NCBI GenBank assembly: GCA_046498225.1
Contig: JAWOBF010000043.1
Coordinates: 16,957-80,956 of the forward strand
DNA from: Candidatus Aegiribacteria sp.
GTDB lineage: Bacteria; Fermentibacterota; Fermentibacteria; Fermentibacterales; JCC-6
Direction: 5' to 3'
Length of the DNA stretch: 64,000 bases
A program made the position numbers and the translations under genes. The notes below the pieces were generated by a model, which ran no database searches, was not told the origin of the DNA, and saw only the letters and a list, made by a program, of their open reading frames with translations. Below, piece by piece: positions 5,476 to 32,138 of this stretch (its first letter is position 1; the number at the start of each line of letters is the position of its first letter).

Positions 5476-5786
5476 ATCAGGCCTCCCAGTCCCGGAAGCC
5501 CCAGGGATTCCATCTTCTCCCGGGAGAGTTCCTTGCTCTCCTTCACCGCGTTCCTCACCGCCACCAGGATAAGGTCCTCCAGCATCTCCACGTCGTCCGG
5601 GTCCACCGTGTCGGGGGAGATGGATATCTCCACGAGCTCTCCCTGTCCGGTCACCACCGCGCGCACCATGCCCTCGGCGGCGATGCCCTCCACCCGTTCC
5701 TCGGCCAGGTCTTCCTGTACCTTCATCACACCGGCCTGCATCTGCTGTGCCTGGGCCATCATCTTCTTGAGCTGTTTCTGGTTCAT
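5472..5786 (-). CDS. ybaB: nucleoid-associated protein YbaB/EbfC
   Basis: 104 aa, MNQKQLKKMMAQAQQMQ... typical YbaB; sits between dnaX and recR. Confidence 0.85.
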   Translation of the reverse strand: MNQKQLKKMMAQAQQMQAGVMKVQEDLAEERVEGIAAEGMVRAVVTGQGELVEISISPDTVDPDDVEMLEDLILVAVRNAVKESKELSREKMESLGLPGLGGLM

Positions 5787-5810: not shown

Positions 5811-7169
5811 TCAGACGGCATCGAAGAGCCCCAGGATCTCCTGTGACGTCTCCTTTTCCTTTTCCCTGTCCATTTCCTCATCGCCGCCCGTTTTCTTCTC
5901 CCGCTCTTCCCGCGAATCCGCGACCGTCTCCTCTGCCGGGGCCGGGTCCTCCACGGCCGCCTCTTCCAGGGGCCTGTCCTCCGAGGTGGACGGTTCCACC
6001 TTCGGGGGGACGCGAGACGCTTCCACACTCCCGGCCGAAGCCAGTGTTTCAGACACCCCGGGAAGATCGTCGATGGAAAACACCCTGGAAAGCTTCGAAG
6101 CGGTCATCACCGCCGTCTCCAGGGTGACCCGGGGAAGATTGCTTCTTTTGACCTCGGTGGAGGCGCTGCTCATGATCCGCAGGATGTTCAGCACCGCCAC
6201 GTCCGGGACACCGGCCGAAAGCTTCTTAAGGAGCTGTATCTCCGACTCCGGTACCTCCCTGAGACTCTCCGACGCGCCGGTCACCACCAGAAGGAGGTTC
6301 CTCAGAAAAGAAATGAACGCGTCCAGCAGTTCGTCGACGCTGTATCCCTCGGACAGAGCCCTGGAGACCCTGTCGATAGCCCCGGGAGTGTCTCCGGCCA
6401 GCACGCTGGCGGCTACCGAGGCCAGCAGGTCGGTTTCCACCATTCCCAGAAGCCTGGCAACCTCCTCGCCGCGTATGTCGTTGCCGGAGAAGCTGACCAG
6501 CTGGTCCATCAGTGAAAGCGCGTCGCGCATGCTTCCGCCGCTGGCCCGGCATATCAGGCTCAGGGCAGAGCTGTCCAGCTTGATATTCTCTCCAGCCGCC
6601 TCCCTGCTCAGATATTCCGACATGTCCGAGACCGGGATCCGCCTGAAATCGAACCTCTGGCACCGGCTGAGTATGGTGTCCGGAACTTTCCTCGGCTGCG
6701 TGGTGGCAAAAATGAAGACAACGGAGTCCGGGGGTTCCTCCAGTATCTTGAGAAGCGCGTTGAACGCCTCGTTGGTGAGCATGTGGACCTCATCGATGAT
6801 GTATATCCTGTACCTGCCGGTAGCGGTGGCGTAGCGGGCCTTCTCCCTCAGGTCCCTTATCTGGTCGATGCCCCTGTTGCTGGCACCGTCTATCTCCCTT
6901 ACGTCAATATGGCTTCCGGCGGTGATGCTCCTGCAGGCCTCGCACTTCTGACATGGCTGTGATATGGGGCCGCTCTCACAGTTCAGGGCCTTGGCGAATA
7001 TCCTTGCCGTGGTGGTCTTTCCCACTCCCCGGGGACCGGTCAGCAGGTATGCGTGACCTATTCTGCCTTTATCTATGGCGTTCTTGAGGGTAACTGTGAC
7101 ATGTTCCTGGGACAGTACCTCTTCAAAGGACTGCGGCCGCCATTTCCTTGCGAAGACCAGATAGCTCAA
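5811..7169 (-). CDS. dnaX: DNA polymerase III subunit gamma/tau (short form)
   Basis: GPRGVGKTT Walker A, zinc module CQKCEACRSI, DEVHML, SRCQRFDFRRI. Confidence 0.9.
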   Translation of the reverse strand: MSYLVFARKWRPQSFEEVLSQEHVTVTLKNAIDKGRIGHAYLLTGPRGVGKTTTARIFAKALNCESGPISQPCQKCEACRSITAGSHIDVREIDGASNRGIDQIRDLREKARYATATGRYRIYIIDEVHMLTNEAFNALLKILEEPPDSVVFIFATTQPRKVPDTILSRCQRFDFRRIPVSDMSEYLSREAAGENIKLDSSALSLICRASGGSMRDALSLMDQLVSFSGNDIRGEEVARLLGMVETDLLASVAASVLAGDTPGAIDRVSRALSEGYSVDELLDAFISFLRNLLLVVTGASESLREVPESEIQLLKKLSAGVPDVAVLNILRIMSSASTEVKRSNLPRVTLETAVMTASKLSRVFSIDDLPGVSETLASAGSVEASRVPPKVEPSTSEDRPLEEAAVEDPAPAEETVADSREEREKKTGGDEEMDREKEKETSQEILGLFDAV

Positions 7170-7187: not shown

Positions 7188-7468
7188 GGTAGGCCGGCCG
7201 TACGGGTCTGCTGGACAGGCCTCACGGGACGCATGCCGCAGCCAGCTCAGGCCAGGTTGTCCTGCGTCGCCCGCCAGACACCGCTTACCGCTGCTACCTT
7301 CCGGTCCTGACGGGGTTCACGGGCTGACGCCGCGCAGGTCCTGACCCTCAACACCGCTTGCATACATGCAGACCCGCTGCGCGCTGCCGCACAGATCGTT
7401 CGGCCCCGCTGCAGCGGATTGCGGGTACAGGGCACCGCTAGCTCCCCGCCTAGCACGGCCGGCGGGCT
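7188..7468 (-). ncRNA. ffs: signal recognition particle RNA, long (Alu-domain-containing) form
   Basis: Minus-strand sequence ...GUCAGGACCGGAAGGUAGCAGCGG... at ~7285-7315 matches the conserved SRP domain IV motif; terminal helix GCCGGCCGU (RC of 7455-7463) pairs with ACGGCCGGC (RC of 7192-7201); canonical position upstream of dnaX. Confidence 0.65.
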
Positions 7469-7510: not shown

Positions 7511-8122
7511 CTAATTCCGCTCCAGCGGCAGTACGGTCTCACCGCTGGGCAACGGGTCCTGTGCCCGGTTTTCCGGAGTGACTGCGGCCTCATTCCTGCA
7601 CAGAACGGCGGCCGCTGTCAGCCCCGCCAGGATGACCAGCAGCGCGTACAGGATTCTCCTTGCGCTTATCCCCTTCAGAATTCCATCGGACCTGCAGCAT
7701 CTTACCGCCGCTGCGCTTCCGCCGCTCCCTTTGAAGCGGACCCTGGTCCCGGCCACCATTTCCTCCAGGCATTTATCCAGATTATTCCGGCACCCGCGGG
7801 CAAGACCCGCTGCCGAAGGGGTACCGGCCAGCCCTCGCAGTCCTCCGGTAACCAGGACAACGGACTGCCCGGGCTGAAGGTCCACATCCATCACGGTTCC
7901 CTTTTCCAGTTCTACGGCGAGGCTGTCTTCCAGACCCTTTCCGCATAGAAAGGCCCCGCAGCTTCCCGCCGAGTAGACCCGGACATCTCCATCCAGCACG
8001 GCCGCGGCGGCAATGGACAGACTGGGACTTTCGCCCGGGGAAACGGCCAGTCCGTCCATGCAGTCCTTCAGTACGTCCCCCGCACCGTACGCGACACCCT
8101 CGGCGAAGGTGTCACGAACCAT
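7511..8122 (-). CDS. degenerate PP2C/SpoIIE-like phosphatase domain protein with C-terminal TM segment (N-terminal boundary uncertain)
   Basis: DGDVRVYSAGSCGAFLCGKG and LQPGQSVVLVTGGL resemble the SpoIIE/RsbU phosphatase fold (…YANAGH…/…LEPGD.LLLYTDGL…); ORF-track N-terminus 8123-8476 overlaps tRNA-Ala so is not coding as drawn. Confidence 0.35.
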   Translation of the reverse strand: MVRDTFAEGVAYGAGDVLKDCMDGLAVSPGESPSLSIAAAAVLDGDVRVYSAGSCGAFLCGKGLEDSLAVELEKGTVMDVDLQPGQSVVLVTGGLRGLAGTPSAAGLARGCRNNLDKCLEEMVAGTRVRFKGSGGSAAAVRCCRSDGILKGISARRILYALLVILAGLTAAAVLCRNEAAVTPENRAQDPLPSGETVLPLERN

Positions 8123-8348
8123 GTTCACGGCATTCTTTACGGAAAGGTACGCGGAAGGGGGACCTTCGGCCACCACGGCGACTCCTGCAACCGCCGGCGT
8201 TCCCCTGAAACCATCCGCGTGAGAGCCTGTGCGGGAGCCTATCCTTCCGGGCTGGTTCAGCCAGGAGATCTCCAGCCGGACCCGGGTCTTCAAGACCGGA
8301 CCGCCAGGGACCCGCTTCGGCCTGCTCTTCCGGAGGGAATGGAGGGGG

Positions 8349-8424
8349 TGGTGGAGATGAGCGGGATCGAACCGCCGACCTCTGCCTTGCGAAGGCAGCG
8401 CTCTGCCAGCTGAGCTACATCCCC
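8349..8424 (-). tRNA. tRNA-Ala (anticodon CGC), CCA encoded
   Basis: Cloverleaf read from reverse complement: GGGGAUGUAGCUCAGCUGG...CUGCCUUCGCAAGGCAG...GGUUCGAUCCCGCUCAUCUCCACCA; G3:U70 Ala identity pair. Confidence 0.9.
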
Positions 8425-8477
8425 ACGAACCGCCCTGCGGAATAGATGAAAATACACCGGTGGGCCGGCCTGGCACA

Positions 8478-10232
8478 TCACTCTATGAGATATACCTTCC
8501 CCGAACCGGAAACAACGGTGAAGCCATCCTCGGAGCCGGACAGGACAATGTCAGGGTCCGCGGCCATTATGGAAGATGTCCTCACCAGGAACACCCGGTT
8601 GTTCTGTCCCAGAAGTATGACTCTCACCGGCCTGGGAGCCTGGAAGATGACGGTCTCATGACCGGTATCCTTTATCACGAACAGGTCTTCGTTCTCCGGG
8701 ATCTCCAGAAGCTCCAGCCTGATCTCGCCGGTATGGAGGACCACGGCTTCCTTTCTTATGACCATGTTGTCCCTGACCTCGAGCCTGAGGGGTTCCTCCG
8801 AGCCGCAGTTGAGAAGGAAGGTTCCCTGCCCGGAAAGGCTGACCCTGCTTTCCTCCGCCCATTCCACCTGCAGGGTATTCTCCATCACCGAAAGCATGCA
8901 CCGGTCCAGGTCCAGTCTGCCCGATATCATGCTGACCGTAAGCAGGCCGGATTCCGAAGACCACGGGTCTATGGTGTAGTCGGCTTCGTTCCTCATGACG
9001 CAGACCCTGTGCTCCGCAGCTTCAGTAACAGGTTCCTCTTCGGCAGCAGGTTCCTCCTCGACTTCGGGCTCTTCCTCTTCTTCGGGAACCTCCTCTTCGG
9101 GTTCCTCCTCGACTTCGGGCTCTTCCTCTTCTTCGGGAACCTCCTCTTCAGGTTCCTCCCCGGTACCCTTGAAGATGTCTTCCAGCGTCCTGCCGGCACT
9201 GAATGGAACGGTCTCCTCGGCCTCGACAACGGGCTCTTCCTCTTCTTCGGGAATCTCCTCTTCGGGTTCCTCCCCGGCTGCCGGTTCTTCCTCTTCTTCG
9301 GGAGCTTCCGCTTCCGGCTTCTCCTCTTCCGGCTCACCGGAGGCGGTGCCGAATATCTCGTCCAGGCTGACGACCCTCTTCCCGCGTCCGGCGGACGTAT
9401 CATCCGGAGCGGCATCCTCCGCTTCATCAGCATCTTCCGGTTCGCTGAACGCGGATTCAAGCGCCGATGACGCTGTAACTCCTATGTTCTCCAGAAGGGC
9501 GGACACATCCGCCTCCTCATCCTCGGAGGTGGAATCTCCCGAAAGGCCTATGTTCTTCAGCAGGGCGTCCACGCTGTCATCGTCCTCGTCGTCCCGGGAG
9601 TCCGCGAAGAGTTCATCCGATGGCACGTCAGGATAGATCTGCAGACCTTCCCTGGGCGTTTCCTCCTCTTCACCGGGTTCCTCCGCTTCGGGCTTCGCTT
9701 CCTCCTCCTGAGCTTCAGCTTCCGGTTCGTTTTCCTCTTCGGCTTCAGCCGCTTCGGTCTCCTCCTCGACAGCAGCCTCCTCGGACTCCTCCTTCTCGGA
9801 AGCCTTCTCACCGACCCTGGAATTGAAGACCTCCGCCAGGTTGACCCCGGAATCCCTTTCCCTGGCGGTGATCCTGTTCATGGCCACGGAAGCGCTGTGA
9901 TGGTCCGGGTCGTTGTCCAGGACTACCTGGTAATTGTCGGCTGCCAGCTGATACTCCCCCAGCTCCTCCAGCACCTGAGCAAGTCTGAAATGATTGTTGA
10001 CGTTGCCCTCCTCCAGGGTGATGAGTATCTCCAGCTGTTCCCTGGCCTCGGACCACAGTTCCATTATCATGCAGGTATCCGCCAGCAGGCTCCTGCCCCG
10101 GGGTCTGGTTCCTATGAGTGAAATGGCCTTCTGCAGCAGTTCCCGGGCCTGTTCCGGAGAGCTCTTCGCCAGGTAGGCCTCCGCATCGTTGCAGAGAGTT
10201 GTGTAAGTTTCGCCAGTGAAAGTATCAGACAT
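8478..10232 (-). CDS. TPR-repeat protein with long poly-acidic (E/P/V) tandem-repeat linker and C-terminal domain of unknown function
   Basis: Start set at ATG 10232 (MSDTFTG) with GGAGGAAAC RBS, because the ORF-track N-terminus overlaps tRNA-Ser; N-terminal TPR-like helices, ~230-aa Glu/Pro-rich repeat region, ~170-aa C-terminal beta-rich domain. Confidence 0.6.
   Translation of the reverse strand: MSDTFTGETYTTLCNDAEAYLAKSSPEQARELLQKAISLIGTRPRGRSLLADTCMIMELWSEAREQLEILITLEEGNVNNHFRLAQVLEELGEYQLAADNYQVVLDNDPDHHSASVAMNRITARERDSGVNLAEVFNSRVGEKASEKEESEEAAVEEETEAAEAEEENEPEAEAQEEEAKPEAEEPGEEEETPREGLQIYPDVPSDELFADSRDDEDDDSVDALLKNIGLSGDSTSEDEEADVSALLENIGVTASSALESAFSEPEDADEAEDAAPDDTSAGRGKRVVSLDEIFGTASGEPEEEKPEAEAPEEEEEPAAGEEPEEEIPEEEEEPVVEAEETVPFSAGRTLEDIFKGTGEEPEEEVPEEEEEPEVEEEPEEEVPEEEEEPEVEEEPAAEEEPVTEAAEHRVCVMRNEADYTIDPWSSESGLLTVSMISGRLDLDRCMLSVMENTLQVEWAEESRVSLSGQGTFLLNCGSEEPLRLEVRDNMVIRKEAVVLHTGEIRLELLEIPENEDLFVIKDTGHETVIFQAPRPVRVILLGQNNRVFLVRTSSIMAADPDIVLSGSEDGFTVVSGSGKVYLIE
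9031..9330. repeat. imperfect in-frame tandem repeat array; two perfect 51-bp copies at 9050-9151 encoding EEPEEEVPEEEEEPEVE
   Basis: ggttcctcctcgacttcgggctcttcctcttcttcgggaacctcctcttc repeated with period 51 (9050 and 9101), partial third copy at 9152, degenerate copies to ~9300. Confidence 0.85.
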
Positions 10233-10330
10233 GTTTCCTCCCCGAATTAATGCTGAAATCGCTGGCATACCGATATCTACGATAATCAGCAGACACACGG
10301 ACCCCGAACCGGCTTCCTCCGGACGAGGGG

Positions 10331-10423
10331 GTGGCGGAGAGAGAGGGATTCGAACCCTCGAGAACGAATACACGCTCTACACGGTTTCCAACCGTGCTCC
10401 TTCGGCCACTCGGACATCTCTCC
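10331..10423 (-). tRNA. tRNA-Ser (anticodon GGA), long variable arm, CCA encoded
   Basis: RC: GGAGAGAUGUCCGAGUGGCCGAAGGAGCACGGUUGGAAACCGUG...GAGGGUUCGAAUCCCUCUCUCUCCGCCA; 7-bp acceptor GGAGAGA/UCUCUCC, discriminator G. Confidence 0.9.
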
Positions 10424-10555
10424 GCATAAGAACTGAACGGGCCGGAAAATTCCTTATACCGCACAACTGCGAACCAGGCCGACACAACGTACCGGTCCGT
10501 CCGGCGGCATCCATTGCGCCCGTCATGGAAGCCGGCCTTTCTCGCAGGCTAATTG

Positions 10556-10600
10556 ATAGGCAATATATAAAAAAGTGTCAACTTGCGGAAAAACAGGCCG
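10556..10600 (-). promoter_or_regulatory. candidate promoter (TTGACA..17..TATCAA on minus strand) in AT-rich patch upstream of tRNA-Ser(GGA)
   Basis: Only AT-rich stretch in the 10430-10660 intergenic region; hexamers read by eye. Confidence 0.2.
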
Positions 10601-31112: not shown

Positions 31113-32138
31113 TCATGTTGTAGAGCTTTGAATCTCCTGCCGTATTCTGTCGCTGACCCCGCATCTGTAGAAGTCACAGGCGGCGACCACGGCGTTTTTG
31201 ATGGCTTTTGGGGTGCTGCTGCCGTGAGCCACGATAGAAACACCGTCCAGCCCCAGCAGAGGCGCGCCTCCGTACTCGGCGGAATCGAGTCTCTCCCACA
31301 GCTTGGAAAAGGAATGCCTCATGAGAAGATACCCCGCCCGTGAAGCCCAGTGACGCTTCATCTCCAGGTAGAGCGAACCTCCGACCATGTCAGCTATGGA
31401 CTCGTACGTCTTGAGAAGCACGTTGCCGGCGAAACCGTCGCACACAACCACATCGGCCTCGCCCTTGAGTATTCCGTCACCCTCTATATTGCCCCTGAAA
31501 TTGAGCCGGGAATCCTCGAGCATACCGTAGAGCTCCTGCAGGACCGCCGGGCCCTTGGTCCTTTCGTGGCCTACGTTCAGGACCAGGACCCTGGGGTCGT
31601 CGATATCGAAGACGCTTCTGGAATATGCGGTGCCCATAATGGCGAACTGGAACAGCTGATTCTCGTTGCATCCAACATTAGCCCCTACGTCCAGTATCAC
31701 GGTGGGATTCTTCTGAGTAGGGACGGTTCCGGCTATCGCCGGCCTGGGTATCCCTTCTATTCTCCCGAGGGCGAAGAGACTGGCAGCCATCATGGCGCCG
31801 GTATTGCCCGGGCTGACCATGGCCTGGGCCAGGCCCTTCTTCTGAAGACCGGCCATGACCACCATGGAGCTGTTCGGCTTATTCTTCAGGGCTTCGGCCG
31901 GATGGTCGGTCATGGTTATGACCTGAGAGGCGTGCTGTATCGAAATGGGAAGCTTCGCCCCTCCGCTCCTGCTAAGAAGCCCGGACAGGCAGTCCCGGTC
32001 TCCCACCAGGGTGATGGAAACGCCGTCGGTGACGGAACCGTCGCAGTCCCTGAAGAACTTCACCACTCCGCTCACGACAACGGCCGGCCCGTTGTCCCCT
32101 CCCATGGCGTCCACGGCTATATTGAAGTTTTCAGGCAA
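31113..32138 (-). CDS. plsX: phosphate acyltransferase PlsX
   Basis: IAVDAMGGDNGP N-terminus typical of PlsX. Confidence 0.9.
   Translation of the reverse strand: MPENFNIAVDAMGGDNGPAVVVSGVVKFFRDCDGSVTDGVSITLVGDRDCLSGLLSRSGGAKLPISIQHASQVITMTDHPAEALKNKPNSSMVVMAGLQKKGLAQAMVSPGNTGAMMAASLFALGRIEGIPRPAIAGTVPTQKNPTVILDVGANVGCNENQLFQFAIMGTAYSRSVFDIDDPRVLVLNVGHERTKGPAVLQELYGMLEDSRLNFRGNIEGDGILKGEADVVVCDGFAGNVLLKTYESIADMVGGSLYLEMKRHWASRAGYLLMRHSFSKLWERLDSAEYGGAPLLGLDGVSIVAHGSSTPKAIKNAVVAACDFYRCGVSDRIRQEIQSSTT

Follow-up and report, generated by a model that had tools for sequence, protein, structure and literature searches.

Several described systems place a long, disordered, length-variable and repeat-built segment rich in glutamate and proline between interaction modules. 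These include the FimV/HubP hubs, TonB with its Glu-Pro/Lys-Pro spacer, and titin with its PEVK and poly-E elements. Other systems carry a protein gene within a tRNA operon, as in the E. coli thrU-tyrU-glyT-thrT-tufB unit. A gene that recalls both arrangements is described here from Candidatus Aegiribacteria sp., a member of the phylum Fermentibacterota. It resides in a 64,000-nucleotide stretch of contig JAWOBF010000043.1 (positions 16,957 to 80,956; GenBank assembly GCA_046498225.1), which is termed the window below and whose coordinates are used throughout. The minus strand of window 8349-10423 carries tRNA-Ser(GGA), one real protein-coding sequence and tRNA-Ala(CGC). ARAGORN and Rfam both recognize the two tRNAs, as an initial annotation had proposed in describing a single gene between two same-strand tRNAs.

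The encoded protein consists of three parts: a tetratricopeptide repeat (TPR) head, a polyanionic linker and an all-beta tail (Table 1). Its net charge is about -126, and its combination of TPR head, repeat linker and AIM24-like tail is undescribed. The reading that we prefer, with a probability of about 0.55, is that this is an ordinary phylum-restricted gene for a cytoplasmic, acidic, multivalent scaffold or tether that changes length by repeats and is probably driven by a promoter together with the tRNAs. Through its head and its tail, such a protein would engage partners or other copies of these two modules. Its Glu/Pro tracts would serve as an expanded, entropic polyelectrolyte spacer, and the motifs embedded in them would recruit a further partner. 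The tether is polyanionic, proline-stiffened and disordered over ~275 residues, with a reach roughly estimated at 15-20 nm.

The head is assigned to the TPR family with confidence. Pfam TPR_2 matches residues 93-123 with 31.0 bits (cutoff 27), TPR_14 reaches 24.1 bits (cutoff 23.5), and overlapping Pfam TPR families span residues 29-133. There is therefore a repeat above its gathering threshold among several adjacent 34-residue repeats, and the TPR helices noted initially at the N-terminus are real. The arrangement of three repeats and a capping helix is shared with the TPR modules of CTPR3, Hop/STIP1 and SPAG1. The closest sequences in the PDB are consensus designs with three TPR repeats (best E 1.6e-6; CTPR3 itself 0.0099), and the TPR regions of SPAG1 and STIP1/Hop match far more weakly (E 7e-4 and 0.03). 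Only two of the five carboxylate-clamp positions are kept in a manual register, which is a non-rigorous test. A basic stretch at residues 41-48, TRPRxRS, does not vary among the family members read, and it has no known counterpart. The head is the most conserved part of the protein, with at least ~80% identity among Aegiribacteria orthologues. NCBIfam yields only generic sub-threshold TPR matches (HemY, SycD/LcrH and MamA), none of which is taken as membership. The sole match to PADLOC defence models is a 17.9-bit alignment of a PrimPol model to the TPR region, which does not qualify the gene as a defence system.

The acidic repeat linker between head and tail has the anatomy initially described, with some corrections. 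It comprises ~275 residues (136-410) rather than ~230, and it is not almost pure Glu, Pro and Val. Its composition is 35% E, 12% A, 9% P, 7% D, 7% S and 6% V, with a net charge of -101, and a conserved block of short motifs, ~105 residues long, interrupts it. When seven complete orthologues are aligned, variable acidic tracts alternate with conserved short motifs (VNLAEVF, GLQIYPDVPSDELFADS, SVDALLKNIGLSGD, DVSALLENIGV, ALESAF, SLDEIFG and GRTLEDIF). The motifs stay conserved and the surrounding acidic sequence does not. Two copies of (V/I)(D/E)xLLxNIG are present in the tether, and the two LLxNIG units of the motif block correspond to a 45-nt DNA duplication with 71% identity (family D3). A likeness of SVDALLKNIGL to the CheY-binding peptides of CheZ and FliM was set aside, Fermentibacter being without flagella. 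When the repeat and motif segment was searched against PDB sequences, nothing useful was returned.

The number of motifs far exceeds that expected from composition. Among 24 full-length members, [DSTN]-L-[EDSA]-[AEDS]-[IV]-F-[GNA] occurs in 2-7 copies per protein, except in the divergent P0026, which has one copy; composition-matched shuffles of the linkers yield 0.02-0.1 copies. With 500 shuffles per protein, the observed count is reached by none in 21 of the 24, and by 1, 1 and 30 shuffles in the others. In the window protein, L-x-x-[IV]-F motifs lie at residues 131-136, 289-295 and 349-355, all of them internal. Sabulitectum-type members carry 2-7 copies of the variant [AE]DLSA[IV]F[GA].

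This variant resembles the factor-binding tail of archaeal and eukaryotic ribosomal P-stalk proteins. In P. horikoshii aP1 the tail comprises L100 and L103-S104-A105-L106-F107-G108, of which L103, L106 and F107 are essential (PMC4267659). Both systems have an acidic flexible spacer followed by L-S-A-[LIV]-F-G, and several copies per assembly (PMC4267659). The motifs that follow acidic spacers in the present family (DLSAIFG, DLSAVFA and SLDEIFG) might accordingly be copies of the P-stalk tail that pool or sequester translational GTPases or other proteins that bind stalk tails, and the position of the gene, flanked by tRNAs and following a conserved promoter directly before tRNA-Ser, would suit a translation-linked recruiter of this kind. 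Such a function is nevertheless distinctly improbable. The free carboxylate of G108 aids binding by aP1 (PMC4267659), whereas the motifs here are internal, a folded beta domain forms the C-terminus, and the organism is bacterial. The window copies read SLDEIFG and TLEDIFK, and a six-residue amphipathic likeness could be due to chance or convergence. The P-protein N-terminal dimerization domain is not found, no ribosomal P protein or other ribosomal-protein family being among the Pfam and NCBIfam matches, and the PDB search with the repeat was empty. The likeness to a P-stalk lies in the motif and its spacer. Bacteria, moreover, use the globular C-terminal domain of L7/L12 for this purpose and not a tail peptide. 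Similarly improbable is a protein, expressed from the tRNA operon, whose several internal tail-like motifs would act away from the ribosome as a factor pool or as a decoy that captures translational GTPases or other proteins binding stalk tails, with repeat slippage adjusting how many docking sites it offers.

The charge of the linker could itself be the active principle. Its density is extreme, its acidic character is conserved although its sequence is not, and the DNA-related genes dnaX-ybaB-recR are neighbors. The Glu tracts might then act as a nucleic-acid mimic, a chaperone of basic proteins or a cation buffer, with the folded ends used for targeting. It is the hydrophobic motifs, however, and not the charge pattern, that form the conserved elements. 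One branch (P0010 and P0017) retains the motifs in a less acidic linker that is rich in Pro and Ala. We therefore regard a polyanion function as improbable.

The acidic tracts are built from tandem repeats in every orthologue, always in frame, with a unit and copy number that differ between species. In the window, Tandem Repeats Finder (TRF) reports a 51-bp repeat in tract 3 with 2.2 copies and 96% matches. The 51-bp repeats of the initial annotation are thus real, although its two perfect copies are perfect in peptide only: the 17-residue peptides are identical, and the DNA agrees at 50 of 51 positions, with a single synonymous difference. Tracts 2 and 3 are related by duplication, because 9221-9324 is 87% identical over 104 nt to 9056-9159 (family D1). 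A weaker 27-bp repeat with 2.6 copies (TRF) underlies the ~37-residue insertion in tract 1, an insertion that six complete orthologues lack. In the window and in loci L005, L006 and L008 the C-terminal domain is directly preceded by the main array, with periods of 51, 63, 36/69 and 36/72, respectively. A further array with a period of 42 occurs in acidic tract 2 of L008.

Comparison of close relatives bears out the expectation that these repeats are length-variable. L014 and L018 are 94.8% identical, and their sole indel is a 39-residue block (3 x 13 residues) in tract 3. P0028 and P0047 are 98.8% identical and differ by a sole indel of one 25-residue unit that carries a DLSAVFA motif. Replication slippage is probably the cause of such differences. 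Repeat indels reset the length of the spacer and, in the Sabulitectum-type branch, where the repeat unit includes DLSAVFA, also change motif valency.

The same repeats appear to disrupt genome assembly. Ten of 24 related loci end inside an acidic tract (L001, L003, L007, L009, L012, L013, L016, L017, L021 and L024), and two more have N-gaps there, each a scaffold gap of 100 N within the repeat (L002 at ~7590-7700 and L004 at ~5510-5610). The gap in L002 shifts the reading frame, with the result that the gene is called as a 174-residue fragment. Many public records of the protein are 'partial' because assemblies break or gap in the acidic repeats.

The tail is all-beta in both AlphaFold2 (AF2) models, and its length agrees with the ~170 residues initially given for a beta-rich domain of unassigned type. 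Its closest described relatives seem to be the AIM24/DUF124 proteins (PF01987; structures 1PG6 and 1YOX), to which it gives a recurrent sub-threshold Pfam signal. AIM24 proteins are typically stand-alone. The domain here differs in being fused behind a TPR head and a 275-residue acidic linker, and about one-third of the family profile is matched. Three independent lines suggest, weakly, that the tail is AIM24-like, and membership is not claimed. First, AIM24 is the only recurrent Pfam family in the tails. It is detected in 9 of 15 members and, at E<1, in 9 of 20 (best 1.4e-6), always below its gathering threshold of 25.7 bits, as for P0021 with 21.8 bits. Of the 205 profile positions, the window domain covers only 130-202 and P0021 covers 13-140, in a different register; neither the gathering score nor a match over most of the profile is reached.

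Second, a profile of 20 diverse C-terminal domains gives 1pg6_A as its top PDB match (E 0.097), and the 1PG6 alignment shows the same conserved G-x-G strand turns (SGxG...G.GKVY). A PDB search with a profile of close orthologues of the tail found nothing useful. Third, a Foldseek search with the better AF2 model (predicted local distance difference test, pLDDT, of 59) returns the six chains A-F of 1YOX as its top six matches, with probabilities of 0.69-0.99 and E 1.4e-3. The poor quality of the model keeps the TM-score at only 0.25. 1YOX (PA3696) is likewise a PF01987 protein. A mundane family thus roughly accounts for the domain, at a sub-threshold level. 1PG6 is the reference AIM24 structure (PMC6393860, PMC10203443). 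The characterized AIM24 proteins are scaffold-type parts of eukaryotic membrane complexes, and their function in prokaryotes is unknown (PMC10203443, PMC6393860). Both folded modules of the present protein appear to belong to protein-interaction folds.

A more specific version of the scaffold idea, and one compatible with it, is a self-assembling hub. The TPR head, with its TRPRxRS stretch, would bind the LxxIF and LLxNIG motifs of other copies in trans, and oligomerization of the AIM24-like tail would extend these contacts into a network, condensate or polar-hub matrix. In its favor, the motifs are multivalent and far more numerous than in shuffled sequences, the repeat units that carry them vary in copy number between strains, and conservation in the protein is strongest in the TPR domain, its basic stretch being invariant in the members read. 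The best fold match of the tail, 1YOX, was matched via six distinct chains. On the other hand, the strong net negative charge opposes self-association in the absence of counter-ions or basic partners, and in the comparison with the acidic-repeat hub proteins FimV/HubP, whose logic would be similar, the defining LysM and transmembrane parts are missing here. We consider this version possible but doubtful.

The protein is judged to be cytoplasmic because no 19-residue segment reaches the hydrophobicity of a signal peptide or transmembrane helix. No signal peptide or transmembrane segment is found (the maximum 19-residue Kyte-Doolittle average is 1.12), and the N-terminus, MSDTFTGETYTTLCNDAEAY, is polar. 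Pfam and NCBIfam contain no match at E<=1 to TonB_C, OmpA, type IX secretion system (T9SS) or other envelope domains, so the N-terminal anchor and the envelope-binding domain of a TonB-like protein are both lacking. The protein thus differs from FimV/HubP, TonB and titin in having no LysM domain, transmembrane segment, TonB C-terminal domain or signal peptide, and no sequence homology to them. There is no LysM or FimV family match in Pfam or NCBIfam, and only the acidic-repeat character is shared with FimV/HubP.

These observations argue against a view suggested by the initial annotation, in which a tRNA-flanked integration or variation hotspot encodes an envelope protein with a TonB-like, periplasm-spanning linker. 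The Glu/Pro-rich repeats superficially recall TonB-type spacers, and two same-strand tRNAs do bracket a single gene, but the genomic context contradicts the proposal. Twenty-four related loci were retrieved for synteny, and 13 of them include the 5' end of the gene. tRNA-Ala(CGC) is directly 3' of the gene in all 24, and tRNA-Ser(GGA) is directly 5' in 12 of the 13. The gene order held in common with relatives is S8 peptidase ... Dtd, Maf, tRNA-Ser, gene, tRNA-Ala, PP2C-like gene, signal recognition particle (SRP) RNA and dnaX-ybaB-recR. The cassette, whose possible absence from relatives the initial annotation named as a check, is syntenic in all those recovered: the same site, the same tRNAs and the same housekeeping flanks (Maf, Dtd, SRP RNA and dnaX) are seen across the phylum.

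Other features of genomic islands are lacking as well. The gene has a GC content of 0.56-0.61 and the flanks one of 0.59-0.64, which is no deviation. The only flanking direct repeat that might resemble an att site consists of the 3' halves of two different tRNAs (73%), and no integrase is encoded among the called neighbors in L001 and L002. No empty site is seen, since all 24 loci carry the gene in this position. Because of the synteny, the normal GC content and a flanking repeat that is only tRNA-to-tRNA, the integration hotspot is rejected, and the combined hotspot and envelope proposal is extremely improbable. One feature that would fit it is a breakpoint in L010 (WTBT01000012.1), the sole exception with respect to tRNA-Ser, where a rearrangement has placed unrelated genes upstream of an intact gene. 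In this Aegiribacteria metagenome-assembled genome (L010 1-3610), tRNA-Ser and Maf/Dtd are replaced upstream of the gene by a 407-residue ATPase-like protein and predicted membrane proteins, which locates the breakpoint between tRNA-Ser and the gene.

The family is confined to the phylum Fermentibacterota (Aegiribacteria, Fermentibacteraceae and Sabulitectum), and the gene is an ordinary, vertically inherited chromosomal one as judged from sequence comparisons. Word-indexed searches retrieve Fermentibacterota proteins only, the majority with a 'partial' label. When 1.84 billion representative proteins are searched exhaustively with a profile, 23 are found at E<=1e-3. These have the same three-part architecture at 500-816 residues or are fragments, and the named ones are from Fermentibacteria or Sabulitectum. 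All homologues with an organism name, and all 12 loci from genome collections, are from Fermentibacterota. The JGI name 'flagellar biosynthesis GTPase FlhF' for P0002 was rejected, since this fragment consists of acidic repeats and the C-terminal domain and its record lists no Pfam domain. Low-complexity sequence seems to have given rise to the name. Published Fermentibacter genomes are without flagellar genes (PMC5030696).

A promoter-like element is located upstream of tRNA-Ser (Table 1). The pattern AGTTGACA-N17-TATCAATTA is nearly invariant at this position in seven otherwise divergent orthologous intergenic regions. It was found by intergenic alignment, having been missed by a simple sigma-70 scan whose strict -10 rule does not accept the A that the element has at position 6 of the hexamer. 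The aligned orthologous loci have no conserved promoter-like element in the 64-106 nt gap between tRNA-Ser and the ATG, and the aligned orthologues have none between the stop codon and tRNA-Ala. The element TTGACA-N17-TATCAAT may therefore act as a promoter for a conserved same-strand unit that would comprise tRNA-Ser, the gene, tRNA-Ala and the PP2C-like gene. The gene is probably co-transcribed with the tRNAs from this promoter and released by tRNA processing. Protein genes in tRNA operons such as thrU-tyrU-glyT-thrT-tufB likewise lie on the same strand as the tRNAs, with a promoter directly before the first tRNA and no conserved internal promoter. The present case differs in that its product is no known translation factor and its co-transcription is putative.

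Several observations weigh against the scaffold reading or its parts. L010 has lost tRNA-Ser yet keeps an intact gene, so co-transcription with this tRNA is not obligatory. A weak terminator-like hairpin, which is not conserved, occurs between the stop codon and tRNA-Ala. The AF2 models of the tail have low confidence (pLDDT 51 with 5 sequences and 59 with 16), and the Pfam AIM24 match to the window domain (E 2.4e-4, 21.1-21.3 bits) is under the gathering threshold. Finally, the window protein and its strain variant P0041, the only near-identical strain, are 99.7% identical and have the same repeat number. Variability of the window allele within a population is unsupported by this comparison, although repeat number is not invariant between the other close pairs.

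The boundaries of the gene are defined by its tRNA neighbors and by its orthologues. As had been pointed out initially, the maximal open reading frames (ORFs) of this gene and the next one run into tRNAs, that of 8478-10373 (631 residues) over tRNA-Ser and that of 7511-8476 into tRNA-Ala. The coding sequence is taken as 8478-10232 because GGAGG occurs 5 nt 5' of ATG 10232 as read from the sequence, all orthologues begin with MSDTFTGETY, and an identical 584-residue protein is in the database. The latter is NCBI MFO8183135.1, 'tetratricopeptide repeat protein [Candidatus Aegiribacteria sp.]' (P0011 in our set). Two ORFs that cross the repeats on the plus strand (8460-9470 and 8995-9636) are rejected as low-complexity antisense artefacts, being Ser/Phe/Leu-rich translations of GAA/GAG runs.

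Table 1. Features of the TPR gene locus in window coordinates
Feature	Position	Strand	Residues	Basis or remark
Promoter-like element: TTGACA (10581-10576), 17-nt spacer, TATCAA(T) (10558-10553)	10553..10581	-		Upstream of tRNA-Ser; read from sequence
tRNA-Ser(GGA)	10332..10423	-		ARAGORN; Rfam RF00005 54.1 bits
Coding sequence, 584 residues + stop: TPR head, acidic linker, AIM24-like tail	8478..10232	-	1-584	ORF; ribosome binding site and ATG; start kept in orthologues
N-terminal domain, three TPR repeats + capping helix	9858..10232	-	1-125	Pfam TPR_2; PDB sequence matches
First short motif, SGVNLAEVFNS	9819..9851	-	128-138	Kept in most orthologues; in motif census
Acidic tract 1	9654..9818	-	139-193	Holds lineage-specific ~37-residue insertion on 27-bp repeats (~9722-9791)
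Conserved motif block: GLQIYPDVPSDELFADS, SVDALLKNIGLSGD, DVSALLENIGVT, ALESAF, SLDEIFGTAS	9339..9653	-	194-298	Column conservation, 7 complete orthologues
Acidic Glu/Pro tract 2	9210..9338	-	299-341	Composition
Motif VPFSAGRTLEDIFKG	9165..9209	-	342-356	Orthologues: (S/F)xSGKTLE(A/D)IF
Acidic Glu/Pro/Val tract 3	9003..9164	-	357-410	Holds 51-bp tandem repeat 9047-9159
C-terminal all-beta domain, 174 residues, possibly divergent AIM24/DUF124-like	8481..9002	-	411-584	Pfam; PDB profile; Foldseek
tRNA-Ala(CGC)	8349..8424	-		ARAGORN; Rfam tRNA 66.8 bits
PP2C-like neighbor, 260 residues, TTG start	7511..8293	-		ORF; directly after tRNA-Ala

The neighboring gene that follows tRNA-Ala has its real start at TTG 8293 and keeps this position across the phylum. 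The N-terminal region of its product is PP2C-like but degenerate, and a hydrophobic helix lies at the C-terminus. The window copy has no match in Pfam or NCBIfam. It is related to a 495-residue Sabulitectum-type counterpart (BLASTP E 6e-10), which itself has a faint PP2C match (E 0.2). The neighbor is found after tRNA-Ala in L001, L002, L023 and L024 and, on the basis of linkage alone, may belong to the same functional unit as the TPR gene.

Several other RNA features of these loci were recorded. As is common for ffs and dnaX, dnaX (5811-7169) is directly preceded by a full-length SRP RNA of the large bacterial type (7198-7458, minus strand; RF01854, 159.7 bits). Both window tRNAs encode the CCA end, which is followed by the same trailer, CCACCCCCTC (minus strand; 8339-8351 and 10322-10334). 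The trailers of orthologous tRNA-Ser genes differ (CCACCCTGGCTGG and similar), and CCACCCCCTC is thus specific to the lineage of the window. ARAGORN also reports a 'tRNA-???' with a two-base anticodon at 32016-32112 (minus strand). It is probably a false positive, because there is no Rfam tRNA at the gathering threshold and the call lies inside a 341-residue ORF (31113-32138). In L023, a permuted 'tmRNA*' called by ARAGORN at 1159-1773 overlaps tRNA-Ala(CGC) as well as the beginning of the gene that follows, and is most likely spurious.

For annotation, these results remove a false 'island' lead and define a Fermentibacterota-specific family whose members are publicly labeled 'TPR protein', 'hypothetical' or, wrongly, 'FlhF'. 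They also explain a practical nuisance, namely that many deposited copies of the gene are partial. The finding alone opens no long-standing question. It gives a context clue for the uncharacterized prokaryotic AIM24 fold, and it offers a natural example of a disordered tether that changes its length, and in one branch the number of its docking motifs, by indels of whole repeats while its folded ends stay fixed.

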